The translations under genes and the position numbers were made by a program. DNA of 64,000 nucleotides from Paraspadella gotoi (lineage: Eukaryota; Animalia; Chaetognatha): positions 272,206 to 336,205 of the forward strand of contig JBJCIZ010000744.1 in assembly GCA_051294375.1 (NCBI GenBank), given 5' to 3'. Each line of letters opens with the position of its first letter. The stretch's first letter is position 1. Positions 1-64,000 of this stretch are shown piece after piece. The notes under the pieces are model-generated. The model made no database searches. It was given only the letters and a program-made list of their open reading frames with translations, and had not been told where the DNA came from.

Positions 1-2332
1 TAGATTTATCACACCGTCGAAGATACTTATTGCGAGATGAGAGACATCTCGTGGGTTATTTTAGGATACATATTAAAAAAAAAAAACTCCGATGTTTGAA
101 ACTAAGTCAAAGAACCTTTGAATTAGAAACATTTTCCCTCAACAGTCTTTTCGTTCTATTTTCGTCGTCATCTTTGTTTGTCTAGAAAATGTTCTTTTGT
201 TTGAGAGAGGAACGTTTAAAAGCTGGAGGAATCGGGGAAGGTTCCAGAAATATCGTTTTGAATGCTATGTTTAAAAAAATTTTAATTAAAATTAAAAAAA
301 ATAAGTTTTTTTTCTCTTTCTCTCTCTCTGTCTTTTTTTCTCCCTGTCTTTCTCCCTTTCTCTCTATCTCTCTCTTTCTTCCCCCTTCTTCTCCCTAAAT
401 AATATTGATAAATAAATATTTAAGAAATAATAACTTTAATTTTGATTCTTCTATTTTTTATTAATTTCTTAAATATTTNNNNNNNNNNNNNNNNNNNNNN
501 NNNCATCGTCTACAATTCATATCTTTTGTCAACTTCCGTTTCATCATTTTTGTCCTTAGTCATTCTCATTCAAGACCGATCGTTGTCGAGGCTCATGATC
601 CCCGTTAATCGAAAGTTCAGATGGCAAATGTCGTCGTCGTCGTCGTCGTCGTCCGTCGTCGTCGTCGTCGTCGTCGTCGAAGCTACATTTATGTCGTCCC
701 TTCCGACTAAATGAGGCGAAATCAACGACGAATTTTTGTCGGATTTGTGGCGAATTTTGTTGGATCAGCGGCGAAAATAATCGATTCGCCGTCGTTGTCG
801 AAATCGTCAAATCGTGACGTGAATACTGGGATGGTGTTAAAGTTAGAGAGGGCGAGTTAAATGTTATAATATTTAGTTCAATCAAGTGAAATTCTAAACG
901 ATTTTCTTTCTACATTATTTTCTTTTATTTTTTTTTCTATATCCATTCGCTGCTAAATCTTCGAGAAAAAAATATTAATAATGGCGTTTCGTTTCGCTTG
1001 ACGTCATTCCATAAATCGGATCGCCGCCTCTTTGACGTCACATTTGCGTCTCTTTGACGGCATCCTGGCGCCAATGGTAATTTAACTGGCGGTGGCGATA
1101 GAGCCGTTCGACACTTTACCATTTGGTTGTTATGTGTATTGTGTATTGTGTAATGTTTGTTGTATTTTTTGCCTGTATCTTTATCTTTTTCGCTCCTTAA
1201 AAGTTATTAATGTTGTACTTTTATTAAGAAAGAAAGAAACCAATCATTGAATTAACCATCCAACAGTATAACCAATCTTTCAATCAATTATTCAATCAAC
1301 AAATAACCAAACTTTTAAGTATTAAACAAAACCCAACCAAACTTTTACATGGCATCAAGTTTAGCTAATCCGTCTGAGAGGCCATTTTAGAGACGCATTT
1401 TCGAGCCAATTTTAGAGACGCAGTAAATCGCGTAGAAATGAAAGAAAATAAAAGGAGGAAACAAACAGTATTATCAGAAAAAGTAGGAACATTTTCGACA
1501 ACAGTGAGCGGGAAAGGAAAGGAGGGAACAAGATAAAATGAGAGACGAGAGGAAAATATGGCAAGGAAGAGACTTTAGAAGAAGAAGTTATATCGAAAAA
1601 TCTTTGAAGATAAAACTGGATTTTAAGATGAAACGGGGCGCGTTGGGAAAAAAGGCCGAAAAGTAAAAAAAACAAGTGTATAATTGTATAATATAATATA
1701 ATCTATTAAGGAAATTCGTGTTTCTTTCGAAGTAAAAAAAAATAAAGCTTGTAACTCCCCCCCCCCCCACCAAAAAATTATTTATGATCGGAAGTAAAGA
1801 AAAGTTGCGAATATACAACCAAATTCTGGAAATTACTTTATTAATTAATCATAAGATGTAAACTGCGCCGAAGGAAAGAAATGAAAAGCAATAATGTGCT
1901 AAATAATTCATGCTTATTTATTCTTTTTTCTGACAAAAACGAAAATCGGGGGGAAAAAGAGAAATAATATTTATTTCATTTGAGCAAAAGAAAAGAAAAA
2001 GAATTATTGAATATTTGATGAGTTTGGGTTCTGACTTCTGATTCGCTGGTTTCACTCATCTGTGATTGGATGTCCGGAAAAGCCAACGACCAATCACATC
2101 ACAAGGCTAACCAAGTCCATTGACAATCGATAAAAGCCCCAAAACAACGTCAAAAGCTAAATATATATAACCTTATTGGGGAAGAAACATAAAGCATCCT
2201 AACATTATTTACGCTTTTCAAACCAAGAGGAATGACCGTTTGGCCTCGGTCACGTGACCTCGGCGACACTGGCGACGTCACGCGCACCAAACCTAAAACG
2301 CCTTCAACCCTTCCAACCCCCCTTTCAACCCC

Positions 2333-3406
2333 GCTGTCCACCTTACTATGCTTCAGAGTGTAGTGGTTACAGCTGGGTAAGCGAGGCTGTAGGAAATTTC
2401 TTGCTGTCCCCTTACTATGGCTTCAGAGTGTAGTGTTACAGCTCGGTAGCGAGGCTGTATGAAATTTCTTGCTGTCCACCTTACTATGACTTTCAGAGTG
2501 TAGTGGTTACAGCTGGGGTAGCGAGGCTGTAGGAAATTTTCTGCTGTCCACCTTTACTATGGCTATCAGAGTGTAGTGGTTACAGCTGGGTAGCGAGGCT
2601 GTATGAAATTTTCTGCTGTCCACCTTACTATGGCTTCAGAGTGTAGTGGTTACAGCTGGGGTAGCGAGGCTGTAGGAAATTTTCTGCTGTCCACCTTACT
2701 ATCGGCTTCAGAGTGTAGTGGTTACAGCTGGGTAGAGGCTGTAGGAAATTTTATGCTGTCCACCCTTACTATGGCTTCAGAGTGTATGGTTACAGCTGGG
2801 TTAGCGAGGCTGTAGGAAATTTTCTGCTGTCCACACTTACTATGCGGCAGAGTGTAGTGGTTACAGGCTGGGTAGGAGGCTGTAGGAAATTTTCTGCTGT
2901 CCACCTTACTATGGCTTCAGAGTGTAGTGGTTACAGCTGGGTAGCGAGGCTGTATGAAATTTTCTGCTTTCCACCTTACTATGGCTTCAGAGTGTAGTGG
3001 TTACAGCTGGGTAGCGAGGCTGTAGGAAATTTTCTGCTGTCCACCTTACTATGGCTTCAGAGTGTAGTGGTTACAGCTGGGTACGGAGGCTGTAGGAATT
3101 TTATGCTGTCACATTACTATGGCTTCAGAGTGTAGTGGTTACAGCTGGGGTAGCGAGGCTGTAGGAAATTTTCTGCTGTCCACCATTACTATGGCTTCAG
3201 AGTGTAGTGGTTACAGCTGGGTAGCGAGGCTGTAGAAATTTCTGCTGTCACCTTACTATGGCTTCAGAGTGTAGTAGTACAGCTGGGTAGCGAGGTGTAG
3301 GAAATTTCTGCTGTCCACCTTACTATGGCTTCAGAGTGTAGTGGTATAGCTGGGTAGCGAGGCTGTAGGAAATTTTGCTGTCCACCTATACTATGGCTTC
3401 AGAGTG
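2333..3406 (+). repeat. 70-bp tandem array, about 15 full units plus a partial unit
   Basis: Unit gctgtccaccttactatggcttcagagtgtagtggttacagctgggtagcgaggctgtaggaaattttct. The period is 70 (2881 to 2951) and there are no spacers. Confidence 0.95.
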
Positions 3407-3779
3407 GCCCCCCACCTCCGCCACCGTCACCCCCACCTCCGCCCCGTCACGCCCCCCCCGGAGGATTAAGAAGCGAGACGTGTCGCGTCTTCGGCGACGC
3501 CTCTCATTTTTCTTCTCTCTTTTTTTCTTCTTCTCTTTTTCTTCTCTTTATTCTTCTCTTTTTCTTCTCCTTTTTCTTCTCCTTTTTCCTCTCTATTTTC
3601 TTTTCTTTTTCTTCTCTTTTTTCTTCTCTTTTTCTTCTCTCTCTTTTTTTTCTTTCTCTTTTCCTTCCCTTTTTTCCTCTCTATTTTCTTCTCTTTTTTC
3701 CTCTCTATTTTTTTCTCTTTTTTTCCTCTATATTTTCTTCTATTTTTCTTCTTCTCTCTTTTTCCTCTCTTTTTCTTCT

Positions 3780-4370
3780 CTATTTCTTCTCTTTTTTCTT
3801 CTCTTTTTCCTCTCTATTTCTTCTCTTTTTTCTCTCTTTCTTTCTCTCTCTCTTTTTATTTCTCCATTTGGCCTGAATTCGGAATCGAGTTTTTTACGGA
3901 TTTGTTGCGCATGCGCGCTGTTTAAGACGATTTTCGGTCGGTCGGTCGGTCGATGGACAGAGATCTAAATGTGCATATATGTAATAATTGTTTTACTTAT
4001 TTGTTTTAATTAAATCTGCGTTATTTCTTCTTTTCTTCTGATTCTTCTATTTTTCTTCTTCTTCTCTTTTTCCTCTCTTTTTTTCTCTATTTCTTCTCTT
4101 TTTTCTTCTCTTTTTCTCTCTATTTTCTTTTCTCTTTTTTCTCTCTCTCTTTTCTCTCTCTCTTTTTATTTTTCTCATTTGGCCTGAATTCGGAATCGAG
4201 GGTTTTTTACGGATGTTGTTGCGCATGCGCGCTGTTTAAGACGATTTTCGGTCGGTCGGTCGGTCGATGGACAGAGATCTAAATGTGCATATATGTAATC
4301 AATTGTTTTACTTATTTGTTTTAATTAAATCTGCTTATTTTCTTCTTTATTTCGATTCTTCTATTTTTTT
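3780..4370 (+). repeat. About 311-bp direct duplication at the centre of foldback 1
   Basis: ggcctgaattcggaatcgag...gtcgatggacagagatctaaatgtgc starts at about 3870 and again at about 4181. It occurs only once in the right arm (4371-4560). Confidence 0.85.
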
Positions 4371-5014
4371 GAAATAAAAGAAGAAAATAAGCAGATTTAA
4401 TTTAAAACAATATAAGTAAAACAATTATTACATATATGCACATTTAGATCTCTGTCCATCGACCGACCGACCGACCGAAAATCGTCTTAAACAGCGCGCA
4501 TGCGCAACAACATCCGTAAAAAAACCCTCGATTCCGAATTCAGGCCAAATGGAGAAAATAAAAAGAGAGAGAAGAAAAGAAAGAGAGAAAAAAGAGAAGA
4601 AAATAGAGAGGAAAAAGAGAAGAAAAAAGAGAAGAAAATAGAGAAGAAAAAAGAGAGGAAAAAAGAGAAGAAGAAGAAAAATAGAAGAAAATAGAGAGGA
4701 AAAAAAAGAGAAAAAAATAGAGAGGAAAAAAGAGAAGAAAATAGAGAGGAAAAAAAGGGAAGGAAAAGAGAAAGAAAAGAGAGAGAATGAAAAGAGAGAA
4801 AAGAAGGAAGAAAAAGAAAAAGAAAATAGAGAGGAAAAAGGAGAAGAAAAAGGAGAAGAAAGAGACGAGAATAAAAGAGAAAGAAAAAGAGAAGAAGAAA
4901 AAAAGAGAAGAAAAATGAGAGGCGTCGCCGAAGACGCGACACGTCTCGCTTCTTAATCCTCCGGGGGGGGGGCGTGACGGGGCGGAGGTGGGGGTGACGG
5001 TGGCGGGTGGGGGC

Positions 5015-6205
5015 CACTCTGAAGCCATAGTAAGTGGGACAGCGCAAAATTTCCTACAGCCTCGCTACCCAGCTGTAACCACTACACTCTGAAGCCATAG
5101 TAAGGTGGACAGCAGAAATTTTCCTACACCTCGCTACCACAGCTGTAACTACTACACTCTGAAGCCATAGTAAGGTGACAGCAGAAATTTCCTACAGCCG
5201 CACCCACAGCTGTAACCACTTACACTCTGACAGCATAGTAAGGTGACAGCAGAAAATTTCTGACAGCTGCTACCCAGCTGTAACCACTACACTCTGAAGC
5301 CATAGTAAGGTGGACAGCATAAAATTTCCTACAGCCTCGCTACCCAGCTGTAACCACTAACACTCTGAAGCCATAGTAAGGTGGACAGCAGAAATATTTC
5401 CTACAGCCTCGCTACCCAGCTGTAACCACTACACTTCTGAAGCCATAGTAAGGTGGACAGCAGAAAATTTCATACAGCCTCGCTACCCAGCTGTAACCAC
5501 TACACTCTGAAGCCATAGTAAGGTGGACAGCAGAAAATTTCCTACAGCCTCGCTACCCAGCTGTAACCACTACACTCTGAGCCATAGTAAGGTGGACAGC
5601 AGAAAATTTCCTACAGCCTCGCTACCCAGCTGTAACCACTACACTGCTGAAGCCATAGTAAGGTGGACAGCATGAAAATTTCTACACAGCCCGCTACCAG
5701 CTGTAACCACTACACTCTGAAGCCAGATAGTAAGGTGGACAGCAGAAAATTTCCTACTAGCCTCGCTACCAGTGCAGCTGTAACCACTACACTCTGAAGC
5801 CATAGTAAGGTGGACAGCAAAAAATTTCCTAGCAGCCTCGCTAGCCGCGGAGCTGTAACCACTGACACTGCTGATAGCCGATAGTAGGTGGAGCAGCAGA
5901 GAAATTTCGTCTACAGCCTCGCTACCGGCTCAGTCTGTAAGCCACTACACTCTGAAAGCTCATAGTAAGGTGGACAGGCAGAAACTTTCATTACAGCCTC
6001 CCGCTACCGGCAGCGTGTAAGCATACCTCTTGAAAGCCATAGTAAGGGTGACAGCAAGAATCTTCCTCACAGCCTCGGCTACCGCAGCTGTAACTCCACT
6101 ACACTCTGAAGCATAGTAAGGTGGACAGCAGAGAAATTCATGACAGCCTCGCTACCGCGATGCTGCTAACCACTACATCTCTGAAGCCATAGTAAGGTGG
6201 ACAGC
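5015..6205 (-). repeat. Inverted copy of the 70-bp array, about 16 full units plus a partial unit
   Basis: Reverse complement of the unit at 2333-3406, with more indel noise from about 5640 onward. Confidence 0.95.
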
Positions 6206-7846
6206 GGGGTGAAAGGGGGTTGGAAGGGTTGAAGGGTTTAAGGTTTGGGCGCGTGACGTCGCCAGTGTCGCCGAGGTCACGTGACCGAGGCCAAACGGTC
6301 ATTCCTCTTGGTTTGAAAAGCGTAAATAATGTTAGGATGCTTTATGTTTCTTCCCCAATAAGGTTATATATATTTAGCTTTTGACGTTGTTTTGGGGCTT
6401 TATCGTATTGTCAATGGACTTGGTTAGCCTTGTGATGTGATTGGTCGTTGGCTTTTCCGGACATCCAATCACAGATGAGTGAAACCAGCGAATCAGAAGT
6501 CAGAACCCAAACTCATCAAATATTCAATAATTCTTTTTCTTTTCTTTTGCTCAAATGAAATAAATATTATTTTCTCTTTTTCCCCCCCGATTTTTCGTTT
6601 TTGTCAGAAAAAAGAATAATAAGCATGAATTATTTAGCACATTATTGCTTTTCATTTCTTTCCTTCGGCGCAGTTACAATCTTATGATTAATTAATAAAG
6701 TAATTTCCAGAATTTGTTGTATATCGCAACTTTTCTTTACTTCCGATCAAATAATTTTTTGGTGGGGGGGGGGAGTTACAAGCTTTATTTTTTTTTACTT
6801 CGAAAGAAACACGAATTTCCTTAATAGATTATATTATATTATACAATTATACACTTGTTTTTTTTACTTTTCGGCCTTATTTTCCCAACGCGCCCCGTTT
6901 CATCTTAAATCCAGTTTTATCTTCAAAGATTTTTCGATATAACTTCTTCTTCTAAAGTCCTTCCTTGCCATATTTTCCTCTCGTCTCTCATTTTATCTTC
7001 TCCCTCCTTTCCTTTCCCGCTCACTGTTGTCGAAAATGTCCTACTTTTTTTGATAATTACTGTTTGTTCCTCCTTTTATTTTCTTTCATTTCTACGCGAT
7101 TTACTGCGTCTCTAAAATGGGCTCGAAAATGCGTCTCTAAAATGGCCTCTCAGACGGATTAGCTAAACTTGATGCCATGTAAAAAGTTTGGTTGGGTTTT
7201 GTTTAATACTTAAAAGTTTGGTTTATTTGTTGATTGAATAATTGATTGAAAGATTGGTTATACTGTTGGATGGTTAATTCAATGATTGGTTTCTTTCTTT
7301 CTTAATAAAAGTACAACATTAATAACTTTTAAGGAGCGAAAAAGATAAAGATACAGGCAAAAAATACAACAAACATTACACAATACACAATACACATAAC
7401 AACCAAATGGTAAAGTGTCGAACGGCTCTATCGCCACCGCCAGTTAAATTACCATTGGCGCCAGGATGCCGTCAAAGAGACGCAAATGTGACGTCAAAGA
7501 GGCGCGATCCGATTTGGAATGACGTCAAGCGAAACGAAACGCATTATTAATATTTTTTTCTCGAAGATTTAGCAGCGAATGGATATAGAAAAAAAAAATA
7601 AAAGAAAATAATGTAGGAAAAGAAAATCGTTAGAATTCACTTGATTGAACTAAATATTGTAACATTTAACTCGCCCTCTCTAACTTTAACACCATCCCAG
7701 TATCACGTCACGATTTGACGATTTCGACGAACGACGGCGAATCGATTCATTTTCGCCGCTGATCCCAACAAAATTCGCCACAAATCCGACAAAATTCGTC
7801 GTTGATTTCGCCTCATTTAGTCGGAAGGGACGACATAAATGTAGCT

Positions 7847-50840: not shown

Positions 50841-51015
50841 AATTAGATTTGATTTAAAAAAAGAGAAAAAAGAAAGATGAAAAAAACAAACTCTAAAGGC
50901 CATAATAGTCAACCCGGCGATTAAAACAATTTCAAAACAAATCAAAAACCCAAAATAATTAATCCTAATTCATAATATAATTTTACCCCCCATTTCCTTC
51001 TACCCCCCCCCAAAG

Positions 51016-51171
51016 GCTACGCGGATCGCGTCTCCCTAGGAGCGGATGGAATCTCTCTTCAGCTTCGGAATCTGACGTCCTCTGACTTCGGGACTTACGT
51101 GTGCGAAGTACTCGTTGCCGAAGGGACGGAGTTTGACAACCAAGCTGTCGACGTCGACTTGGAAGAAGCCG
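51016..51171 (+). CDS. Internal exon (156 bp, phase 1-1) encoding the C-terminal half of an Ig V/I-type domain
   Basis: Pyrimidine tract plus AAG acceptor at 51013-51015 and G|GTGAG donor at 51172. It translates to YADRVSLGADGISLQLRNLTSSDFGTYVCEVLVAEGTEFDNQAVDVDLEEA, with the R-x-x-L...L-x-L-x-N-L-x-x-x-D-x-G-x-Y-x-C Ig signature. Confidence 0.85.
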
Positions 51172-51447
51172 GTGAGGATGGATTGGGGATTGGAAGGGGA
51201 TGGATTGGGGATTGGGTGGGGAAGGGATGGGGATCGGGGTCTGGTAGGTGGGTTGCAGGGGTGAAAGGGTCGAGGAAAAGGTTGCGACGGATAATGTGAA
51301 TATTTTAAGATTTGTGAATGGCGAAGAGGTTGAGAGTGAATTAAGGAGATGCGATGTCGAAGAGAAATGATGTGATAAGATAATAAAAAATCTTAAAAGA
51401 ATAGGATCTCGCCTACCTTCAANNNNNNNNNNNNNNNNNNNNNNNNN

Positions 51448-51660
51448 ATGATAACCAAATATTGATGCGATGATAACCAATAATTGATGCGATGATAACC
51501 AAATGATCGATGTGATGATAACCAGATGATTTATGTGATAATAACCAAATGATTGATGCGATGATAGTCATTCATTGATGTGATGATAATCATTCATTGA
51601 TACGATGATAGTCATTCATTTGATGCGATTATAGTCATTCGTTGACGCAATGAATCATTC
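51448..51660 (+). repeat. 23-bp minisatellite (ATGATAACCAAATGATTGATGCG)n; second copy at about 57490-57790
   Basis: The period is 23 (gatgataacc at 51491 and 51514), and the units drift toward ATGATAGTCATTCATTG. Confidence 0.9.
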
Positions 51661-52139
51661 ATCATAATAAAACAAACAAATGCGTGTATGAGTGAAATAG
51701 AGAGAGAAAGAGAGAGAGAGAAAGAAAGAAAGAGAAATAAATCCACGAAAATCTCGGATGGTAATTTTGGGAATTTGCATTGAGAAAAAAAGCAAGAATA
51801 AATGGCGATAATAAAAGTTTTTAAAAGGAAAAAAATAATAAAAATTTTTCAAAAAACGATCACGCAAGAGATCGTACAAAGAGAGAGAGAGAGACAGAGA
51901 CAGAGAGAGAGAGACAGAGAGAGACAGAAGAGAAGAAAGAGACAGACAAAAGACAGAGAGAGAAAGAGAGAAAGCTGAACAGCCGCTGGAAGACAGTTGT
52001 ACAATCACTGCAAAGCCTGAACTCGTTTTTAAAGGGTTCAGAGAGGGCAGAACTGACAAAAATAGGAAGAAGATACATATATAATTAAAGAAATAAAAGA
52101 AAGGAAAAAAATGTTACAAATTGTTTACAATTGTTTAAC

Positions 52140-52500
52140 ATCAGAAGCTTGTAAAAGATTTATTTTTATTTGTATTAAAAATTAAGATATAGGCTTCTCA
52201 TTAAAAAGGTCTTGGATTTCCATTTTTATTATAGATTTAAAATTTTTTTTGAATTTCATCTTAATATTATATACTGCAATATGTAAAATTAGATTAAAGC
52301 ATTTCTATATACTACTTTGGATATTATAATGAGTACTATAATCTCATTGCAGATTGCAGTAAATCATAATGAAGTGGAAATTCAAACAAAAAATACTTAA
52401 ATCCAAATGTAATAAGAAAATATCAAAGCTATATTCAAGAATGAGAAGCCATATCTAAATTTTTAACTTACTATGATCGCACACTTTTTGTAAAACTTTA
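52140..52500. mobile_element. About 350-bp AT-rich hairpin (foldback MITE-like), present only in duplicate copy 1
   Basis: ttaaaaattaagatataggcttctcatt (about 52175-52202) pairs with aatgagaagccatatctaaatttttaa (about 52440-52466). tttgaatttcat...tactgcaat pairs with attgcagta...gaaattcaaa. Confidence 0.6.
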
Positions 52501-52607
52501 TCATAATTCATAATAATTTTTATTTAAAAAAAAACGGTAAGTCCCACCAACCAAATAAAGCGTATTAGTTTTAATATAAAAAAATGGTAGGTTTGCGGTG
52601 AATTCTT

Positions 52608-52649
<42 letters not shown>

Positions 52650-53045
52650 CCACAACTCTTGTTTTGCGCTGATGAGGCTAGTATTTAAGCCGAAGCATGT
52701 CTCGTTTGCCGTATAAAAAAATTTAAACGTTTTGTTATATATTAAAAAAAAAATTCTGTTCTTATCTTCACTCAAAAGAAAGAAAAAAAATGTCTAGATG
52801 CTATAAAAATAAACTCGCCGAGCTAATTGTATCGCAAGGATATAAAGAAAAACGAAAGTTGAAAAAAGAATTAGATTCGAGGAAAACAGAGGAAATTTGA
52901 TTTGAGATTACAGAAATCATAAGTTAGTACGGACACCAAAGTTCACGGAATAAACAAAAACAATAAAAAATAAAATATGAAAAAAAACGCCAATTCTAAA
53001 ATCTGTTGTAGCTAGAATTGTGATAATTTTCGGGAGACATCTTAT

Positions 53046-54845
53046 TTAAGGATTTCTTCGATTCACAAAAATGACGCAGGAACTCTTATGAATCTTGATC
53101 CGATTTTCCCGGCTGAGTGAAAATAGCAGCGACCAACTTTTCTCGATCGTTTTTGGATCTGATCGTATAAGAAGCGCGCGGCGGAAATCCCGTGGTGAAG
53201 GCCAGCTCGATGCACTTCGGGTCGGAGGTGCTGTCCGAGATCAGGGTGAGGGTGTTGGTCGTGTTCACGTCCAGCATCTCTCCATCTGCAGCAGATTTTT
53301 CTCTCGCTCCGCCACGGTCAAATTCTCCGCTCTGTTGTAGACAAAGACGAAGTTTTCGGATGTTCCTTGTAGTGGAGCCAATCCAAATATTGATTGATGG
53401 CTTCGGTGTGGCTGCCCCGATTCGTCCGTAGCAGACGACGACGACGATGTCGATGGAGACCATGTTCGTCTCGAGTTTATCCTTGACGACAATCGTAAAC
53501 TCCTTCTTGCTCATGAAGAATCGCAATTCCGATCGTGTCGATGACGTTCATGGATTTGACCTCGAGTTCCGACTCCGATCCGGTGTAGCCGTTGACGTCG
53601 TCGGCGAAGATAAGACCTTCCAAAAAGACGACGTCCTTGGTGACGGACTGTGCATCCGGCGCGGATTTGCTTCATTCTTGTTGAAACAAGAGGTTGATGA
53701 GGCGGGATTTTCCCGAGCCAGGTCGGCCGAGGGAACAGTACGTTGTAGCCAGACTGGACTGGCGCTTCCAGACATTTTCCCTTGTTGAAAATTTTGAACA
53801 TTGAATTGCATTCAGGGACAAAAGATCCGTCGCGACTTGATCGGCGTCCAAGTCGTCGTCCACTTCCTTGGCGGAGTGTTGATGAGCTTCTTCGCTTCGG
53901 GCGATCAGGATTTTCTTGAATTCTTTCCCTGATGCCGCCACCGCTGGCGGTTTGAAAAGAGATCAGTTTGCCCGAGTAGACGTAACGGGCCACGTGTTCG
54001 CAATTGCGTAGAGGATTGAGTGGTTGGTGCGCCACTGACGTTTATCAATTCTTTGTTTCACGTCTCGAGTGAGACTAGGAAAAGAGAGAGAGATATTGAG
54101 AAAGGGTGTGTCCTTAGTTCCTTACACACAAAACAGCTTCACACGGCTTTCAGCTTATTTACACAAAATCCTCATGAACGACGTAAAGCTTATTCCCGCG
54201 ATTGACATATATCTCGACAAATGTTGTGAACCTTAACGAATCGTTTTTCCCGGAGTGAAACAGGCGAATTCGAAGACCCAAAATCCGTCGGTGGACGAAC
54301 CAGTGATTGTACTTGTACGTCTCTCCTCCACGCGGTGCCTGCGGGAACATCCTTTCGGATGGCAAAAGAGACGGAGGCTCAAAGGCGATCAAGGGAAGGA
54401 AAAGCCGAAAAAAGGCGGGATCCCGATTCTGATTTTTCTTGAGTAAACGGAGTGGGTCAGGCCCAGCCGACCCTGGTCACCTCCGCCCCTCTTCCTCACT
54501 CCCAATCCCCTCCCTCCCTCCCTCCTCTCTCCCTCTCTTCCTCTATAATCTTCCCACCGCTAATTAAACAACAATTCGGCTTGCAGCCTCTCAAGGCAAG
54601 ATCTCAGTCTACCATCTTAGACAGTCTTTGGAGAGTGAGTAGTCCCTCGTTGACGAATGCCTTTCAAGTCAATGTTAAGATTCCCGCGAAGTTTCTTCGT
54701 CGAGCAGAGCTGGAGTGTTTCGCCGAACCGCGCGAAGGTTGGCCAAATGTTCCACGCGCAGCTTCGAGTTGATCGTCAGTTCGTGTGGGTTTTTCGCCAG
54801 TTGTCCTTTTCGTTTTTGCTTTCCGCGGAGATCGATTGTTCCCAT
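53046..54845 (-). CDS. LRAT/PLAAT-like (H-box/NCEH) domain fused to an AIG1/GIMAP-like P-loop GTPase, copy 1 (many indel frameshifts)
   Basis: ATG at 54845. YKYNHWFV H-box near 54300. Phase-2 GT-AG intron at 54162-54075 with a polypyrimidine acceptor. Then LRNCEHVARY, G1 GxxGSGKS, G2 QSVTKD, G3 VIDTIG and G4-like YNRAE. The stop is at 53086 or about 53046 depending on frame correction. The structure of 54340-54720 is unresolved and may contain another intron. Confidence 0.8.
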
Positions 54846-56169
54846 TGTCTATTAATTTTCAGGCTTGGATTGGAGTTAAATTTTTTTTTTCTTAATTAAG
54901 AGTCGGTTATTATTTTTTCAATTTTATTCTATTAATTTACTTAATAGCTTGTTACGAATATCATCGAGAACTAAAACGCGTCCGTTGGTTTTTCCCCCTG
55001 CGTGGATTCAATTTGTTAGCTTTAGTCATAACCTAGTCTGGCAAGCTTTCCTATAGGACAGGTTTTGAATATCTTTTCAAAACCTTTGGGAATATACCTG
55101 GTACCAAAAATAAGAGATTTGAGATAGAACGATTTTTTTTGTTCACAAAGCCCAAAAAGGTTCGTAATAAAAAATCTGGTTACTCCATATATGCAAATGA
55201 GATTAACGATTTACAGTATATTTTTATTTAATAAAAAACTAAATTATATTATATAAAGGTTTATTATATTATTAAAATCAAATTAAAAAGCTAATATGTA
55301 TCGTTTGATAGCAGGACGGATAAAAAATAATATTAGCGATAAAAAGCAATGAAAATACTATTGAAATGAAGAATTTCTTGTTAACTTAATCTTGAAAGAT
55401 AATGATAGTAGATGTGAGAGTGAAGAAATGACAAAAAAGCTATTAGACAAAGAGAGAGATACAGTTCATCAGTTTTTGTTTGCTTACAACCATTTTAGTT
55501 ACTGTTTATTTGAATTAATATTTTGTTGTTTTGTTTACAAAACAATAGATTTTAATTTTTTTCGAGTCTTCATTGTTTTCTCCAAAAATTGTTTCCCTAC
55601 TTCTATCAATGCCTTACTTTCGTTTCTCTTCACTCTCTCTCTGTTTCTCGTCCTTTCCTTAAGCCTTCAGATGTCCCTCACTTTAACACTATCCTTTACT
55701 CAATTCTAATGTTGGAATTCTTCTCTCTCTCTCTCTTCTCATCCTCTCTCTCTCCTCTCATCTCTGCTCTCTCTTCTCTCTCTCTACTCTTTCTCTCCCT
55801 CTCTCCCTTCATCATAATGTAGGCAAAATTTAAATTCGCATTGCGTAATGAAGATTCTAAAGAGTCAAAACACTGGTTCGTTTAAAAATTAAAATTTGTT
55901 GTTTGTAACAAACAAAAACTTTCACTATGTTTGATCATATCAAAATACTTACTTATGCAAAAATAGCAAGGATTTCTTGTGAGGGTAATAAAAAGTGAAG
56001 GGTAAATCTTTCATTTTGTCATGGGATAAGGATCTGTTTGTCAAATTCTAACTTTTATTACTTAACACTATTATAAGTTTATTCCAAAAATTTAGTTTTT
56101 GCTCAATCTGTGTCTTTTACTCTATTTTTCTTCTCTCGGTCCGCCACCCCCAATCTTGTCGGGCATTCA

Positions 56170-56645
56170 CTTATATCATGTCCAGACATCGAATTAGATA
56201 AATTATGCAAAAAAAAGATGTCCGTCCGTCCGTTCGTCTGTCTGTCTGTTCTTCCGTCCGTCCGTCCGTCGTCCGTCCGTGCCGTCCGTCCCGTCGTCCG
56301 TCCGTCCGTCGTCCCACCTTAGCAAAAAAAACACCAATTACTCGTGATTGGATGGATGGATTGAAATGGAATTTTGTGTGTGGGTAGGAAGTGTGTGATG
56401 AGCTGTATAATGATGGAATCGTCCGAGTGAAATGAGTTTAATGGAAAAACAAAAAAATATTTTCACTATTGAACACCAGATTACTCACTGAGTGGTAATG
56501 GGGCGATTGACTTGAAATTTGTAATTTGGGTAGAAAAAGTGTGCGATTTAAACTGGAAATCAAGTTTCGATGGATCGTTTGCAGTGGAAATGAGTTTAAA
56601 ATGGGAAAAAACAAAGAAACCTATTTCACTAATTGATTTATGCCT
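56170..56645 (+). mobile_element. HINE/DINE-1-like (Helentron-derived) non-autonomous element segment
   Basis: A (TCCG/TCTG)n microsatellite at 56220-56315 is followed by two diverged tandem cores of about 150 bp (ccaattactc...gaaatgagtttaatggaaaaac...ttcactattga). An upstream gtcgggcat / atgtccagac pair resembles sub-terminal inverted repeats. Confidence 0.5.
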
Positions 56646-56689
56646 CCTTTTTTCTTTTTATTTAAATGTAAATGCAAGATGTTGTAATT

Positions 56690-56905
56690 AATTAATTAAA
56701 TAATTAATCAGTTAATTAATCAATTAGTCTATTAATTAATCAATAATTAATCAGGTCAATTAACAATCAAAACAAACATTTCGGATCAAATTAATTAATT
56801 AATTGCCTATTAATTAAATAATTAACTTGAATAAATTAATTATAATTATTAAAAATATAATTTATTAACTTGAATAATTATAATTAAATTATAATTATTT
56901 AATTA
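56690..56905. repeat. AT-only quasi-palindromic (TAATTAA)n tract
   Basis: Read directly from the sequence. An inverted partial copy lies at about 63910-64000. Confidence 0.8.
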
Positions 56906-58444
56906 CCGATAAAGATATAGAAAACATAAAATAAAGCTTATTGAAAGATGAAGCGATTTGTCCGAGTCAAATAAAAATCGAGCAAAGCGTTAAATTATAG
57001 GACGACAAAGTTCATATGGTACAAAAATCTAAAAACAAAGACAGGAATAAGAGGCTCACCCTAGCCGTCAGCATTCTTTTTCCCTGCCGGGTCTTTTCTT
57101 CCCCACCTCTCCTTCTCTCCCTTCGTCGTCCCCCATCTTCATCCCCGGTCAAGGTCAGGTCTTGGAGATCGCCTCAACCTCGTCTTCCTTCTCACTCTCA
57201 CCCTTTTATTAACCTTATTCTTTTCCCTTTACCAAATATTCATCCTTACCTTACTTACCTTTCCCCGACGAAGCATAGTTAGATCCTTACCAAGAAAGTA
57301 CATACCTTTAGAGAAAGAATTAGTTTTTTGTCCAAAAAAGTCAATAATTTTTTCAATTAAAAATGTTATATAATAGAATATTGGTGAACAAATTCGCATA
57401 GAATATTTCTAGGGATAGGATTTTAATTATTTTTAACCTAAGCAAAATTAAAATATATGAAACTATATAAATAGGATTCTCGCCTACATTCAATGATAAA
57501 CCAATATTGATGCTAATGATAAACAAAGGATTGATGGCGAAATGATTAACCAAATGTTGATGCCGATGATAATCAAATATTTGATGCGATGATAAACCAA
57601 TAATTGATGCGCATGATAACCAAATGATCGATGGGATGATAACGCGATTGATTGTTGTGATAATAACCAAATGATTGATGCGAGATAAGTCATTCATGAA
57701 TGATGATAATCATTCATTGATACGATGATACTCATTCCATTGATTGGCGATGGTAGTTCATTCATATGACGCAATGAATCATTCAATCATAAATAATCAA
57801 ACAAATGCTGTGTATGAGTGAAAGAGAGAGAGAAAGAGAGAAGAAGAGAGAGAGAAGAAAAGAGAGAGAAAGAAAGAGATAAATCCAACGAAAATCTCCG
57901 GATGTAAATTGGCGATTTGCATTGAGAAAAAAGCGCAGAATAAAAATGCGCGATAATAAAAAGTTTTAAAGGAAAAAAATAATCAAAATTTTTCAAAAAA
58001 ACGAATCACAGCCAAAGAGATCTACAAGAGAGAGAGAGACAGAAAGTAGACAGAAAGAGAGAGAAAGCTGGACAGCCGCTGGAAGGCAGCTGAACAGATT
58101 CCTACAGAACCTGAACTCGTTATTATTAAGGGTTCAGAAAAACAGCAACTGACAAAAATAAGAAAAATAAATTTATATAATAATTTAAAGAAACAAAAGA
58201 TAATAGGTAAAAAATGTTACAATTGTTTAAATTAAAAATCTTGAAAATTTTTTCCAATCATAAGCATCACAATGAATGAACCGGAACAGAGGAAGGTAAG
58301 GAGAGGGATTCCGGAAGAGGAGAAGATTCTATGGAATGATTTTGAATGGGAAATTTTTATTTAAAAAAAAACGGTAAGTCCCAGCCAAACCAATAAAAGC
58401 GTATTAGTTTTAATATTAAAAAAATGCGTAGTTTGCGGTGAATT

Positions 58445-58485
<41 letters not shown>

Positions 58486-59017
58486 TTTCCACAACTCTTG
58501 TTTGCGCTGATGAAGGCTAGTATTAAGCCGAAGCATGTCTCGTTTGCCGTATAAAAAATTTTAACGTTTGTTATATATTAAAAAAAAATTCTGTTCTTAT
58601 CTTCACTCAAAGAAAGAAAAAAAAATGTCTAGATGGCTATAAAAATAAACTCGCCGAGCTAATTGTATCGCAAGGATATAAAGAAAANNNNNNNNNNNNN
58701 NNNNNNNNNNNNNNNNNNNNNNNNNNNNNNNNNNNNNNNNNNNNNNNNNNNNNNNNNNNNNNNNNNNNNNNNNNNNNNNNNNNNNNNNNNNNNNNNNNNN
58801 NNNNNNNNNNNNNNNNNNNNNNNNNNNNNNNNNNNNNNNNNNNNNNNNNNNNNNNNNNNNNNNNNNNNNNNNNNNNNNNNNNNNNNNNNNNNNNNNNNNN
58901 NNNNNNNNNNNNNNNNNNNNNGAATAAACAAAAACAATAAAAATAAAAATATGAAAAAAACGCCAATTCTAAATCTGTTGTAGCTAGGAATTGTGATAAT
59001 TTTCGGGAGACATCTTA

Positions 59018-60703
59018 TTATAAGGATTTCTTCGATTCACAAAATGACGCAGGAACTCTTANNNNNNNNNNNNNNNNNNNNNNNNNNNNNNNNNNNNNNN
59101 NNNNNNNNNNNNNNNNNNNNNNNNNNNNNNNNNNNNNNNNNNNNNNNNNNNNNNNNNNNNNNNNNNNNNNNNNNNNNNNNNNNNNNNNNNNNNNNNNNNN
59201 NNNNNNNNNNNNNNNNNNNNNNNNNNNNNNNNNNNNNNNNNNNNNNNNNNNNNNNNNNNNNNNNNNNNNNNNNNNNTGATCGTAAGAAGCGCCGGGCGGA
59301 AATCCCGTGGTGAAGGCCAGCTCGATGCACTTCGGGTCGGAGGTGCTGTCCGAGATCAGGGTGAGGGTGTTGGTCGTGTTCACGTCCAGCATCTCTCCCA
59401 TCTGCAGCAGATTTTTCTCTCGCTCCGCCACGGTCAAATTCTCCGCTCTGTTGTAGACAAAGACGAAGTTTTTCGGATGTTCCTTGTAGTGGAGCCAATC
59501 CAAATATTGATTGATGGCTTCGGTGTGGCTGCCCTCGATTCGTCCGTAGCAGACGACGACGACGATGTCGATGGAGACCATGTTCGTCTCGAGTTTATCC
59601 TTGACGCAATCGTAAACTTCCTTCTTGCTCATGAAGGAATCGCAAATTCCGATCGTGTCGATGACGTTCATGGATTTGACCTCGAGTTCCGACTCCGATC
59701 CGGTGTAGCCGTTGACGTCGTCGGCNNNNNNNNNNNNNNNNNNNNNNNNNNNNNNNNNNNNNNNNNNNNNNNNNNNNNNNNNNNNNNNNNNNNNNNNNNN
59801 NNNNNNNNNNNNNNNNNNNNNNNNNNNNNNNNNNNNNNNNNNNNNNNNNNNNNNNNNNNNNNNNNNNNNNNNNNNNNNNNNNNNNNNNNNNNNNNNNNNN
59901 NNNNNNNNNNNNNNNNNNNNNNNNNNNNNNNNNNNNNNNNNNNNNNNNNNNNNNNNNNNNCAGTCGGGCCGAGGAACAGTACGTTGTAGCCAGACTGACT
60001 GGCGCTTTCCAGACATTTTCCCTTGTTGAAAAATTGAACATTGAATTTGCATTCAGGGTACAAAAGATCCGTCGCGACTTGATCGGCGTCCAAGTCGTCG
60101 TCCACTTCCTTGGGCGGAGTGTTGATGAGCTTCTTCGCTTCGGGCGTCAGGATTTTCTTGAATTCTTCCCTGATGCCGCCACCGCTGGCGGTTTGGAAAG
60201 AGATCCAGTTGCCCGAGTAGACGTAACGGGCCACGTGTTCGCAATTGCGTAGGAGGATTGAGTGGTTGGTGGCGCCACTGACGTTTATCATTCTTTGTTT
60301 CACGTCTCGAGTGAGACTAGGAAAGAGAGAGAGATATTGAGAAAGGGTGTGTCCTTAGTCCTTACCACAAAACAGCTTCATCACGGCTTTCAGCTTATTT
60401 ACCAAAAATCCTCATGAACGACGTAAAGCTTATTCCCGCGATTGACATATCTCGACAAATCGTTGTGAACCTTAACGAATCGTTTTCCCGGAGTGAAACA
60501 GGCGAATTCGAAGACCCAAAATCCGTCGGTGACGAACCAGTGATTGTACTTGTACGTCTCTACCTCCACGCGGTGCTNNNNNNNNNNAACCCGCGAAGGT
60601 TGGCCAAATGTTCCACGCGCAGCTTCGAGTTGAACTTCAGCTCGTGTGGTTTTTCCCAGTTGTCCTTTTCGTTTTGCTTTCCGACGGAGATCGATGTTCC
60701 CAT
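59018..60703 (-). CDS. LRAT/PLAAT-like domain plus AIG1/GIMAP-like GTPase fusion, copy 2 (interrupted by N gaps)
   Basis: Open from ATG 60703: MGTSISVGKQNEKDNWEKPHELKFNSKLRVEHLANLRG. After a gap: ETYKYNHWFVTDGFWVFEFAC. Then VKQRMINVSGATNHSILLRNCEHVARYVYSG...GYNVLFLGPT. After another gap: MNVIDTIGICDSF...IDIVVVVCYGRI...FVFVYNRAE...RVPASFCESKKSL and a stop. Confidence 0.85.
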
Positions 60704-60889
60704 TGTCTATAATTTTCGAGCTTGGATGGAGTTAATTTTTTTTTTTATATTAAGAGTCGGGTTATTATTTTTTCAATTTTATTCTATTTAATTTTACTTA
60801 TAGCTTGTACCGAATATCATCGAGAACTAAAACCGTCGTTGGGTTTTTTCCCCCTCGTGGATTCAATTTGTTAGCTTAGTCATAACTCG

Positions 60890-61558
60890 TCTGGCAAGCT
60901 TCCTATAGGACAGGTTTGAATATCTTTTCAAAACCTTGGGAATATTACCTTGGTACCAAAATAAGAGATTTGAGATAGAACGATTTTTTTGTTCACAAAG
61001 CCAAAAGGTTCGTAATAAAAATCTGGTTACTCCAATATGCAAATGAGATTAACGATTCACAGTAATATTTTTATTTAATAAAAACTTATTAATATTATAT
61101 AAAAGGTTTTATATATATTATAAAATCAAATTAAAAAGCTAATATGTATCGTTTGATCAGCAGACAGGATAAAAAAATAATATTAAGCGATAAAAAGCAC
61201 ATGAAAATACTATTGAAATGAAGATTTCTTGTAACTTAATCTTGAAAGATAATGATAGTGATAGTGAGAGTGAAGAAATGACAAAAAGCTATTAAGACAA
61301 AGAGAGATACAGTTCAATCAGTTTTTTGTTTTGCTTACAACCATTTTAGTACTGTTTATTTGAATTATATTTTGTTGTTTGTTTACAAACAATAGATTTT
61401 AATTTTTTCGAGTCTTCATTGTTTTCTCCAAAAATTGTTTCCTACTTACTATCAAATGGCCTTACTTCGTTTCTCTTCACTCTCTCTCTGTCTCTCCTTT
61501 CCTTACCTTCAGATGTCCTCACCTTTAACACTATCCTTTACTCAATTCTATGTTGGAT

Positions 61559-61597
<39 letters not shown>

Positions 61598-63080
61598 TTT
61601 AACTCTTTTTAGATCTTCATTCAGGCGCAATGTGAAATTTAAATTTTTGCCCAAACATCATGATGAAGGGGAGATAAAATGATACAACAACGGACCTGAA
61701 GCTCGCGATTAAGCAGGCTTTATAGGGCTTTCATTAAAGACATACATTGGACGTAAAAAAAAAATTTAACATTGTACGTATTTGTAATGTTCTTTAAAAC
61801 ATTTGAAACTTTTTTATCTCAAACCGGACAAGACACTATGAAAAAGTTACCGTGAACGGCCAGAAAACGTAAAATGTAAAAAAACAAAACAAAAACAAAA
61901 AGTAATGATGTAGAATGAGACATTTCTGATTCCCAATCAGGTAACAGGAGCGAGAGAAAGAGAGGGATTGAAGATAAAATCGCCTTCCTGACCTTTTTTG
62001 GTCATTATTTCTCTCTCGGTCCCGTTGCAACGCCCTGTCATTTTCGTACGTTTACTGTTTAGGAATTTGTGTACGAATTTTATTCGGTTTAGAAACCATT
62101 TATTGAAATCAACGTCGCCCCGCCCTGTCCGAAACCGGCCTTTTTACGGGGTTTTTTCGCGACTGATATTGTCACGATTTTCTTTTTTTGCTACAATTTT
62201 AATGACCAAGAATAGACGTTTGGACCGTTCTGGAACTCGCGTTTTACTCCTTTACTTAGAGATATAGTCAGCCGAAACTTTTGTCAAAAACCCTTTTTCG
62301 ACGGGCGGACAACGAACGTTCAAGGAACCGCAAGCGTGGAGACTCAACGTCTTACAAGAGTGCAGAGAGAGAGAAAGAGAGCAAGTAAGCTGTCCAGACA
62401 AAAGAATTGAGTAAAGAAAAGTCGTAAGGAGTAAGAACAGCTAAAGTAAGTTACAGGTAGGAGACAGACGAGAGAGTGATAGAAATAAAGTCATGGTCAT
62501 TTGAGACTCAGTATGGAAACAATGTTTGGAGAAAAGAATAAGACCGAAACATGTCCTTTATAAAAATAAAATTTGTTGGGTTTGTAAACAAAACAAACTA
62601 TAATTTCAAGTTAACAGTACCAAAATGGTTGTGAGCAAAAACAAAAAAAACTGATGAACTGTATCTCTCTTCTGTCTTAATACCTTTTTTGTCATTTCTT
62701 TACTGTTTCACTATCTTTCAGATTAAGTTAAGAAACCTTTATTTTAATTAGTATTTTTCATGTTGATTTTTATTGGTTAATATTATTTTTTTTATCCTGT
62801 CAGCTAATCAAAACGATACATATAGCTTTTTAATTTGATTTTATATTTATTTATTTAAATTTTTAATTAAGATTAATAAGTTTTTATTAAATTAAAATAT
62901 TACTGTGAACGTAATCTCATTTGCCATATGGAGTAACCCGATTTTATATTACTAACCTTTTTGGCTTTGGTGGACAAAAAATTGTTCTATCTCAAAATCT
63001 CTAATTTTTGCGTACCAAGGTAATATTCCCAAAGTTTTGTAAAGATATTCCAACCCATCCTATAGGAAGCTTCCAGGCTA
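60890..63080. mobile_element. Long inverted repeat (arms about 60890-61590 and 62340-63080) around a core of about 750 bp; foldback-type element candidate
   Basis: ctggcaagcttcctataggacagg...ccttggtacc (60891-60957) mirrors gtaccaagg...cctataggaagcttccagg (63012-63077). The arms differ by substitutions as well as indels. Confidence 0.6.
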
Positions 63081-63622
63081 CTACTGCGTAATTGAAAAAA
63101 TTATTATAAATTTTTTAATACATAAATGTTCATTAGTATAATGTTGTTCGTTCCTTACTTTTTAGAATTTTAATTAAGGTTAAATTTAAAAATTTTACAC
63201 GCCTTACTATGTAATATATCATTATTTTAATCATTAATTAAAATATGACATACGAGTCATACCATTTACTATTTACACTGGAGATTCTAATTTCACNNNN
63301 NNNNNNNNNNNNNNNNNNNNNATGTTCGTTTAAAAAATAAAATTTGTTGTTTGTAAACAAACAACAAACTTTCACTATGTTTGAATCATATCAAAATACT
63401 TACTTATCAAAATAGCAAGGATTCTTGGAGGTTAATAAAAAGTGAGGGTAAATCTTTCATTTGTCATGGGTAAGGATCTGTTTTGTCAAATTCTAACTTT
63501 TATTACTTTACACTATTATAAAGCCTTTATCCAAAAAATTTAGTTTTTGCTCAATCTGTGTCTTTTACTCTATTTTTCTTCTCTCGGTCCGCCCCCCCAA
63601 TCTTGTCGGGCATTCACTTATA

Positions 63623-64000
63623 TGTGGAGAAGGAAGACGAGAGTGAGGCCGATCTCCAAGACCTGATCCTTGACTCGGGGATGAAGAGGAGGGGACGACG
63701 AAGGGAGAGAAGGAGAGGTGGGGAGAAAAGACCCGCAGGGAAAAAGGAGCTGACGGTAGGGTGAGCCTCTATTCTGTCTTTTTTTTAGATTTTTGTACCA
63801 ATGAACTTTGTCGTCCTATAACTTTTCAAAGCTTTGCTCGATTTTATTTGGACTCGGACAAATCGCTTCATCTTTCAATAAGCTTTATTTTATGTTTCTA
63901 TATCTTTATCGGTAATTAAATAATTAATAATTAATTAATATTATTCAAGTTAATTAATTATTTAATTAATTAATAATTAATTTATTCAAGTTAATTATTT
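63623..64000 (-). repeat. Inverted copy of about 56800-57195
   Basis: gaaggaagacgag...gatctccaagacctga and ttttgtacca...gactcggacaaatcgcttcatctttcaataagctttatt are reverse complements of 57160-57195 and 56925-57030. Confidence 0.85.

Follow-up and report, generated by a model that had tools for sequence, protein, structure and literature searches.

A predicted fusion of an H-box/NCEH domain with a GIMAP-type GTPase in the chaetognath Paraspadella gotoi belongs to an apparently undescribed protein family

A contig of the chaetognath Paraspadella gotoi (assembly GCA_051294375.1, contig JBJCIZ010000744.1, forward-strand positions 272,206 to 336,205; coordinates below are those of this 64,000-nucleotide stretch, hereafter the window) carries on its minus strand two tandem copies of a spliced gene. 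From its sequence, the encoded product is predicted to be one protein of roughly 430 residues in which a domain with H-box and NCEH motifs is fused to a GIMAP-type GTPase. The copies lie in a tandem pair of a ~6-kb unit (51448..61594), in which about 51448-55754 matches 57566-61594. All motifs named in a preliminary description of this DNA were found in both copies (H-box at 60542 and 54305, NCEH at 60246 and 54005, DTIG at 59659 and 53539, NRAE at 59452 and 53336), except that the GKS end of the first GTPase motif (G1, 53713) and the SVT of the second (G2, 53650) are readable in copy 1 only. A profile built from 52 relatives, run against 2942 six-frame pieces of the window, matches 13 collinear minus-strand stretches of the two copies, the best at E 3e-48, and the match at this locus is therefore not due to chance; just two further stretches were listed in that scan, at E 2.9 and 5.7. 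The guanine-plus-cytosine content (GC) at third codon positions of the gene is 0.66-0.78, compared to about 0.3 GC in the flanks.

In copy 2, the read part of exon 1 (60588..60703; profile positions 5-40, E 6e-4) contains the MGTSIS start and the W..H.L segment of the family, and exon 2 (60403..60577; profile E 6e-7) contains the H-box His and, 11 residues on, the predicted third triad residue, a Glu. After an 86-nt intron (60317..60402) with GT, polypyrimidine stretch, and AG, the first read part of exon 3 (59961..60316; profile E 4e-39) encodes NCEH (60246-60235), the linker, and the start of G1 (FLGPT), and the second (59277..59725; Pfam AIG1 E 2.4e-4, profile E 3e-48) encodes the G3 motif DTIG, the conserved-box Arg (GR, 59548-59537), the G4-like NRAE, and GFPP. 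The C-terminus (59037..59061), KSSCVIL-stop, forms a CaaX motif whose last residue is Leu. The NCEH-linker piece is 41-42% identical to three relatives over 99-100% of its length. Since the frame from NCEH into FLGPT is free of stops in copy 2 (translated piece P0003), the junction of the two domains is directly read, and the assertion that the fusion is not a splicing guess stands. The single reading frame also proposed does not: a GT-AG intron of 86-88 nt separates the H-box from NCEH, in either copy the frame runs into a stop unless spliced, and the alignment to the family is gap-free once the intron is removed. Likewise, the open reading frame (ORF) at 59668-60303, described as uninterrupted, is open from NCEH to the start of G1 but runs through 235 N, beyond which the frame is displaced by 2.

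Copy 1 has the same layout in frameshifted form. Its exon 1 (54689..54845) runs on into a segment equivalent to profile positions 38-55 (1.5 bits, weak alone but placed as expected) and is followed by a probable first intron (54339..54688) with a purine microsatellite, a pyrimidine-rich 3' end, and AG at 54339. This additional, upstream intron, at most some 350 nt long, is likely in copy 1, with its acceptor at 54339, its donor not located, and its 5' end uncertain. Exon 2 with the H-box (54163..54338) and an 88-nt GT..AG intron (54075..54162) precede exon 3 (53062..54074), which holds NCEH (54005), GKS (53713), SVT (53650), G3 (53539), the Arg (53430), NRAE (53336), and SCVI (53081).

Over 2625 aligned columns, the two copies differ by 126 indel events, 90 of which adjoin a run of the same base, and by 25 substitutions, with only 4 substitutions in the 814 columns of the coding part. 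Copy 1 is continuous but noisy, its single-base gains and losses are balanced, and we read its frameshifts as sequencing error. Copy 2 is made up of short, clean pieces separated by N runs, three of which exceed the corresponding stretch of copy 1 by 119-144 bases, and its coding pieces are open over their full length (149/149, 118/118, 57/58, and 38/38 codons). A like error pattern, 23 indels versus 3 substitutions, is seen in an unrelated inverted repeat (1025-7504). The gene had been called duplicated, and two copies do lie in tandem, but true duplication is unproven, with differences that are mostly single-base indels; we rate it as slightly more likely than not that a single locus was assembled twice, the possible alternative being a tandem duplication of very recent date.

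The same architecture recurs in a protein family. With the GTPase half alone as HMMER query (P0001, containing no N-terminal domain), 225 cluster representatives were retrieved at E <= 1e-3, of which 150 were listed; these show mostly 30-50% identity, and 56 of them have at least 380 amino acids, relatives being about 430 amino acids long. Among the 150 listed, G1 lies at residue 100 or later in 67, and 62 of the 67 carry an N[C/S]EH (NC-type) motif upstream; since the N-terminal domain was absent from the query, this count is free of circularity. Judged from these predicted proteins, the fusion is real and the norm of the whole family, and the single-chain, two-domain architecture proposed for this DNA is supported. 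Of 7998 candidates scored with the profile from 52 relatives, 119 reached E <= 1e-20; this profile also matches both window copies exon by exon. For the column counts given below, 98 of 236 proteins were kept (380-560 amino acids, NC-type motif before the G1 motif, so that these two motifs are invariant by selection). Among 30 proteins looked up, the named members come from the copepods Neocalanus flemingeri and Calanus glacialis, the dinoflagellates Alexandrium monilatum and Fugacium kawagutii, the rotifer Adineta ricciae, and the chytrid fungus Cladochytrium tenue. Four more family proteins share the accession prefix of the Neocalanus record, which suggests several paralogues. Most members are on transcript-sized contigs and are labelled only 'EngB-like', 'AIG1-type G domain', or 'hypothetical' in the databases. 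Family members share no more than 40% identity with the window protein, which falls into no strongly supported group in quick trees, and the N-terminal domain is about as conserved as the G domain (mean identity 39% vs. 38%). The family is built of two known domain types and is apparently undescribed.

In metagenome contigs, 22 of 104 pattern matches were confirmed as family members. A prokaryotic origin was rejected, as none of 20 exact-pattern matches in prokaryote species genomes was upheld, and so was a viral origin, the gene having spliceosomal-type introns. In the 15 of 64 IMG/VR parts scanned, one locus of 601 stretches was retained, which lies inside an ORF resembling a replicative helicase by its motifs and was treated as spurious; this is weak evidence of absence. 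Word-index searches upheld none of 163 candidates for the GTPase half against longer proteins and 3 of 662 for the NCEH-linker piece, and no close relative of the window protein was found in them. Odd layouts occur in five members (P0101, P0097, P0242, P0252, and P0203) and include a tandem double fusion (1109 amino acids), a cofilin domain at the N-terminus (Pfam E 6e-17), and N-termini that are longer or carry a hydrophobic extension; some of these may be assembly chimeras. Two further members lie on contigs of genomic appearance (L013:775-1902, 6 kb, and L015:8001-9066, 49 kb), the latter gene-poor, and a short neighbouring ORF on L013 resembles animal Chibby.

The H-box His lies upstream of NCEH in the window protein, i.e. 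in permuted order, and is present in 91 of the 98 relatives; the Cys of NCEH is encoded (TGC) in both copies. On the window pieces themselves, Pfam stays below its curated cut-offs for LRAT (PF04970; 14.1 vs. 24.3 bits, E 0.058, piece without the H-box exon) and AIG1 (PF04548, half-domain; 20.9 vs. 27 bits, E 2.4e-4), but intact relatives back both domains. LRAT is shown in 16 of 69 relatives, in 4 of the 16 above the cut-off, and, in all 10 proteins picked for it, no other non-P-loop Pfam family matches the N-terminal domain, with LRAT above the cut-off in 8. In the ESM Atlas, 29 of 30 matches share the LRAT set (best 0.91), a weak result at a recognition of 1946, below the 2300 mark. Structures were modelled for the relative P0013, with high confidence for the full-length protein (predicted local distance difference test (pLDDT) 91.8, predicted template modelling score 0.90; a helix at 397-412 precedes a low-confidence tail) and for its N-terminal domain alone (pLDDT 94). 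VIA-align of this domain (23 rows) places permuted papain-like proteins in the top eight rows (Z 4.1-7.7, the next dropping to 2.8), including Aichi virus 2A (Z 7.2, 3.4 Å, 99 aligned), PLAAT4 (Z 6.4, 3.0 Å, 90 aligned), DeSI (5.9), TseH and YiiX (5.0), CLN5 (4.7), and a Bacillus permuted peptidase (4.1). The best row is the unannotated PDB chain 8iuf_E7, a subunit of the Euglena respiratory supercomplex (Z 7.7, 4.9 Å, 118 aligned), which may therefore itself be a permuted papain-like protein. A PDB profile search showed no H-box/NC protein among 60 rows, all filled by GTPases, and whole-protein fold searches returned G-domain matches only. In sum, a permuted papain-like fold of the N-terminal domain is supported by the models, and its assignment to the LRAT/PLAAT type agrees with Pfam in intact relatives and with the fold searches.

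The third triad residue, assigned by spacing, is Glu in the window protein and in 85 of 98 relatives. The nucleophile column is occupied by Cys in 62, Ser in 33, and other residues in 3 of these proteins, and the Cys/Ser state requires at least 6 forced changes on well-supported branches, also with that column left out (2 long-branch rows dropped). His, Glu, and a Tyr located 7 residues before the Cys are retained together in 56/62 Cys-type vs. 9/33 Ser-type rows, and we infer from its position that this Tyr column corresponds to the catalytic Tyr of NlpC/P60 proteins. The active site of PPNE enzymes is reported to comprise Cys, His, a Tyr, and a polar residue in third place (PMC3142127), and PLAAT3 is reportedly inactivated by a Cys-to-Ser exchange (PMC12017856). 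Considering these column counts together, the Cys-type members are likely enzymes and the Ser-type members likely pseudoenzymes. The window protein retains Cys, His, and Glu.

For the GTPase half, the AIG1/GIMAP call of the preliminary description agrees with Pfam in intact relatives, with the PDB profile search, and with the fold searches. Motifs G1-G3 (GxxxxGKS, S[VI]T, DTxG) are present in the window gene, the end of G1 and G2 coming from copy 1. Pfam AIG1 is shown for 68 of 69 relatives, covering the first about 90-160 of 212 profile positions; GIMAP4, GIMAP5, and GIMAP7 are the best PDB profile matches (E 4e-13 to 3e-11), with IRG entries lower (E about 1e-5), and VIA-align of the P0013 G domain gives Toc33 (Z 16.9, 3.5 Å, 201 aligned) and GIMAP7 (Z 14.6, 3.2 Å, 186 aligned). 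An Arg after G3, a putative arginine finger of the GIMAP type, is kept in the window protein and 97 of 98 relatives and aligns with the GR of GIMAP4 and GIMAP5; arginine fingers at the G interface have been described for septins, Toc34, and AIG1/GIMAP (PMC10996617, PMC5084822). The P0013 homodimer modelled with GTP and Mg scores 0.66 vs. 0.01 for the best of 3 controls, at least 80% of its contacts agree between runs with pLDDT of at least 75, Arg312 contacts residues 213-214 in the P-loop of the partner copy, and N-domain residues 98-102 also take part in the interface. The score mark is reached by 17/29 eukaryotic homodimers, by 1/7 without an older solved relative, and by 0/30 single chains, and the ligands place this job outside the calibration. 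A G-interface dimer with Arg on the partner's P-loop is thus predicted by the model, which may show likeness (memory) rather than binding because similar GIMAP and Toc34 dimers have already been solved.

Both ends of the window protein carry motifs common in the family (MGTSIS start, CVIL-stop end in copy 2), of which the former is presumably an N-myristoylation-type motif and the latter, a CaaX ending in Leu, presumably a geranylgeranylation signal. A CaaX end is found in 48 of the 56 long matches (>=380 amino acids), 43 of them Leu-ended, and in 106 of all 150 listed, compared to a Cys frequency of 2.5%; 31 of the 56 long matches start with MG and 24 with MGxxx[ST]. Among the 98 full-length relatives, 90 have a CaaX end and 60 an MG start. 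A transmembrane segment was sought with a 19-residue hydropathy window, which exceeds 1.8 in only 4 of 99 rows and peaks at 1.29 in the read parts of the window protein. Lipid anchors are predicted at both ends of the window protein by its motifs, and myristoylation plus geranylgeranylation may stand in for the membrane tail of PLAAT proteins.

Taken together, we propose with an even chance of being right that this is a lipid-anchored protein of the cytosolic membrane face that hydrolyses or transfers phospholipid acyl chains upon GTP-driven dimerisation. The anchors at both ends would hold the protein on the membrane, and GTP binding would pair the G domains and so concentrate two enzyme domains on a target membrane, where they would deacylate or transacylate phospholipids until the partner's Arg drives GTP hydrolysis, ending the pulse and releasing the pair; Ser-type paralogues could act as inactive partners or regulators. 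In favour of this mechanism, recruitment of PLAATs to membranes has been reported to deform organelles in an activity-dependent manner (PMC9338259). By analogy, defence against enclosed intruders would be the likeliest setting: PLAAT4 is reported to restrict viruses and Toxoplasma (PMC10102619), and AIG1 genes are described as expanded among lancelet defence genes (PMC12373286). A wider version, which we regard as tentative and somewhat unlikely, is a eukaryote-wide, single-chain machine of cell-autonomous defence, i.e. a doubly lipid-anchored GTPase with its own phospholipase. Its Ser-type paralogues would be inactive and tune it through mixed dimers, and avian picornaviruses would mirror it in reverse order.

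Several observations weigh against a GTP-switched lipid enzyme. All structure models were made for P0013 and not for the window protein, the Pfam LRAT match is limited to the NC end of the profile, and all Z-scores of the N-terminal domain are under 8, with the isopeptidase DeSI and CLN5 scoring nearly as well as PLAAT4. Foldseek with the P0013 N-terminal domain gave no match at E <= 0.001 (best 0.029), the top rows being picornaviral 2A proteins; given these modest Z-scores and the lack of a significant Foldseek match, the fold class is supported and the substrate is not. In the GTPase half, the G4 motif of the family is N/T-K-x-D/E (Lys in 89 and Asp in 79 of 98), compared to NRAE in both window copies. 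Cys is absent in 36 of the 98 relatives, 33 of which have Ser, and once kinship is allowed for, the link between Tyr and Cys is not significant (6 independent pairs, sign test, median p 0.375). Furthermore, both window copies encode His at the place of the Tyr that is found in 60 of 62 Cys-type relatives, a state seen in 9 Ser-type and 1 Cys-type relative. With one-third of the relatives being Ser-type and a His replacing the putative catalytic Tyr in the window protein, lipase activity is not assured, and the predicted activity of the window protein itself is less certain than that of the family.

These active-site changes could also be explained if the protein were mainly a GIMAP-like scaffold or tether whose H-box/NC domain is a lipid- or protein-binding module with dispensable catalysis, as may hold for the window protein; we regard this as fairly unlikely. 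It would account for the repeated replacement of Cys by Ser, Asn, Gly, or Ala, with His59 of the H-box nonetheless kept in 29 of 33 Ser-type rows, and for the missing Tyr of the window protein, whose nearest rows in one tree are Ser-type; moreover, a Cys-to-Ser mutant of PLAAT3, inactive as it is, is reported to still reach damaged organelles (PMC12017856). However, the joint conservation of His, Glu, and Tyr in Cys-type rows is what a working active site would show, and the window protein keeps its Cys in both copies along with His and Glu. We also consider it unlikely that the N-terminal domain acts on proteins instead of bulk lipid, as a membrane-anchored, GTP-regulated de-acylase, amidase, or isopeptidase (YiiX, DeSI/PPPDE, or CLN5-like). 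The Glu as third residue follows the YaeF/YiiX and viral pattern, LRAT-type enzymes being reported to use His (PMC3142127, PMC10318531), and the Z-scores of DeSI, YiiX, and CLN5 are near that of PLAAT4, but the NC motif goes with LRAT by Pfam and, weakly, by the ESM Atlas. Finally, we regard pseudogene decay of the window copies as very improbable, since the many frameshifts breaking copy 1 are set against read pieces of copy 2 that are open end to end, a third-position GC well above that of the flanks, the retention of all family motifs from Gly2 to CaaX, the mere 4 coding substitutions between copies, and the equal indel excess of the unrelated inverted repeat.

The window around the gene is repeat-rich DNA with many microsatellites and N runs, and Pfam found no match in 34 other candidate ORFs. 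An exon-like frame at 50976-51299 (+), just before the duplicated unit and on the opposite strand, has an immunoglobulin (Ig) V-set match (E 0.002, below the cut-off), as would suit an animal. The fusion gene may be nested within, or adjoin, an Ig-domain gene. The stretches 1025-2297 and 6237-7504 form the near-perfect inverted block with 23 indels and 3 substitutions, possibly a long-read fold-back artefact, and flank a 70-nt satellite array (about 2570-3240 and 5000-6140). After copy 2, 62364-64000 consists of inverted, shuffled copies of 55034-57193 and 60891-61585, making this region a mosaic of repeated pieces. A GTCC microsatellite of 24 copies (56220-56314) lies within a repeat that recurs near 63324; we assume that such tracts mark Helitron-derived interspersed elements.

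Among known systems, PLAAT1-5/H-rev107 proteins (LRAT family, PF04970) share with the fusion protein the H-box His, NCEH, the permuted papain-like fold (PLAAT4 Z 6.4), and a presumed membrane-associated action. The fusion family differs from them in its Glu (not His or Asn) as third residue, its fused GTPase, its predicted lipid anchors, and Ser for Cys in one-third of members; a C-terminal transmembrane tail is reported for PLAAT1-4 (PMC10102619), and none is seen in the fusion family by hydropathy. The equation of H-box plus NCEH with a PLAAT enzyme hence holds for the motifs but not for the third residue, the membrane tail, or the nucleophile of the 33 Ser-type relatives. With GIMAP/AIG1/IAN proteins and Toc33/Toc34 (paraseptin group), the fusion protein shares the G1-G3 motifs, followed by a G4-like one, the SVT switch I, the G-interface Arg, and the predicted head-to-head dimer; these have a coiled coil or hydrophobic tail, in contrast to the CaaX end and N-terminal enzyme-like domain of the fusion family. 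IRG and GBP proteins possess large helical domains but lack a lipid enzyme domain, and the fusion family does not belong to them. They offer an analogy of working only, as lipid-anchored, dimerising GTPases acting on membranes; IRG and GBP proteins carry myristoyl and CaaX anchors. For the Ser-type human LRATD/FAM84 proteins, a literature check gave nothing usable.

The coiled coil has been held optional as a defining feature of GIMAPs (PMC8857920), and the known invertebrate GIMAP fusions are reported to be with CARD, HINT, or tandem AIG1 (PMC12373286). A full-text literature search, outside which lie subscription journals and supplements with domain-architecture tables, returned no cellular LRAT-AIG1 fusion: the word LRAT is absent from the main text of a survey of cnidarian and dinoflagellate GIMAPs (PMC8857920), and the retrieved parts of two other papers mention AIG/GIMAP effectors and no LRAT fusion (PMC7159879, PMC3417536). 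The nearest precedent is the 2A region of avihepatovirus, aalivirus, and avisivirus, in which both domain types are described side by side, AIG1-like and then H-box/NC (PMC8421316). In contrast to the spliced, nuclear fusion gene, this region has the reverse order, belongs to a viral polyprotein, and is usually read as two cleaved proteins, although some read that of duck hepatitis A virus as one protein with AIG1 before the H-box/NC domain (PMC5519566). The earlier remark that no protein of this architecture has been characterised is thus upheld for cellular proteins within the literature searched, with the viral region as a reverse-order precedent.

It is reported to be still unclear how GIMAP/AIG1 GTPases exert their effect (PMC8857920), and the switching-on of PLAAT3 at damaged membranes is described as an open question (PMC12017856). 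In the natural fusion, both halves sit in a single soluble protein, in which lipid-enzyme output can be followed as a function of GTP state, and the family would offer a reason why some picornaviruses keep both domains adjacent. If the wider defence proposal is true, one polypeptide does what vertebrates divide between immune GTPases and PLAAT enzymes. With several copepod paralogues and members in dinoflagellates, the family may therefore matter for plankton immunity or symbiosis.

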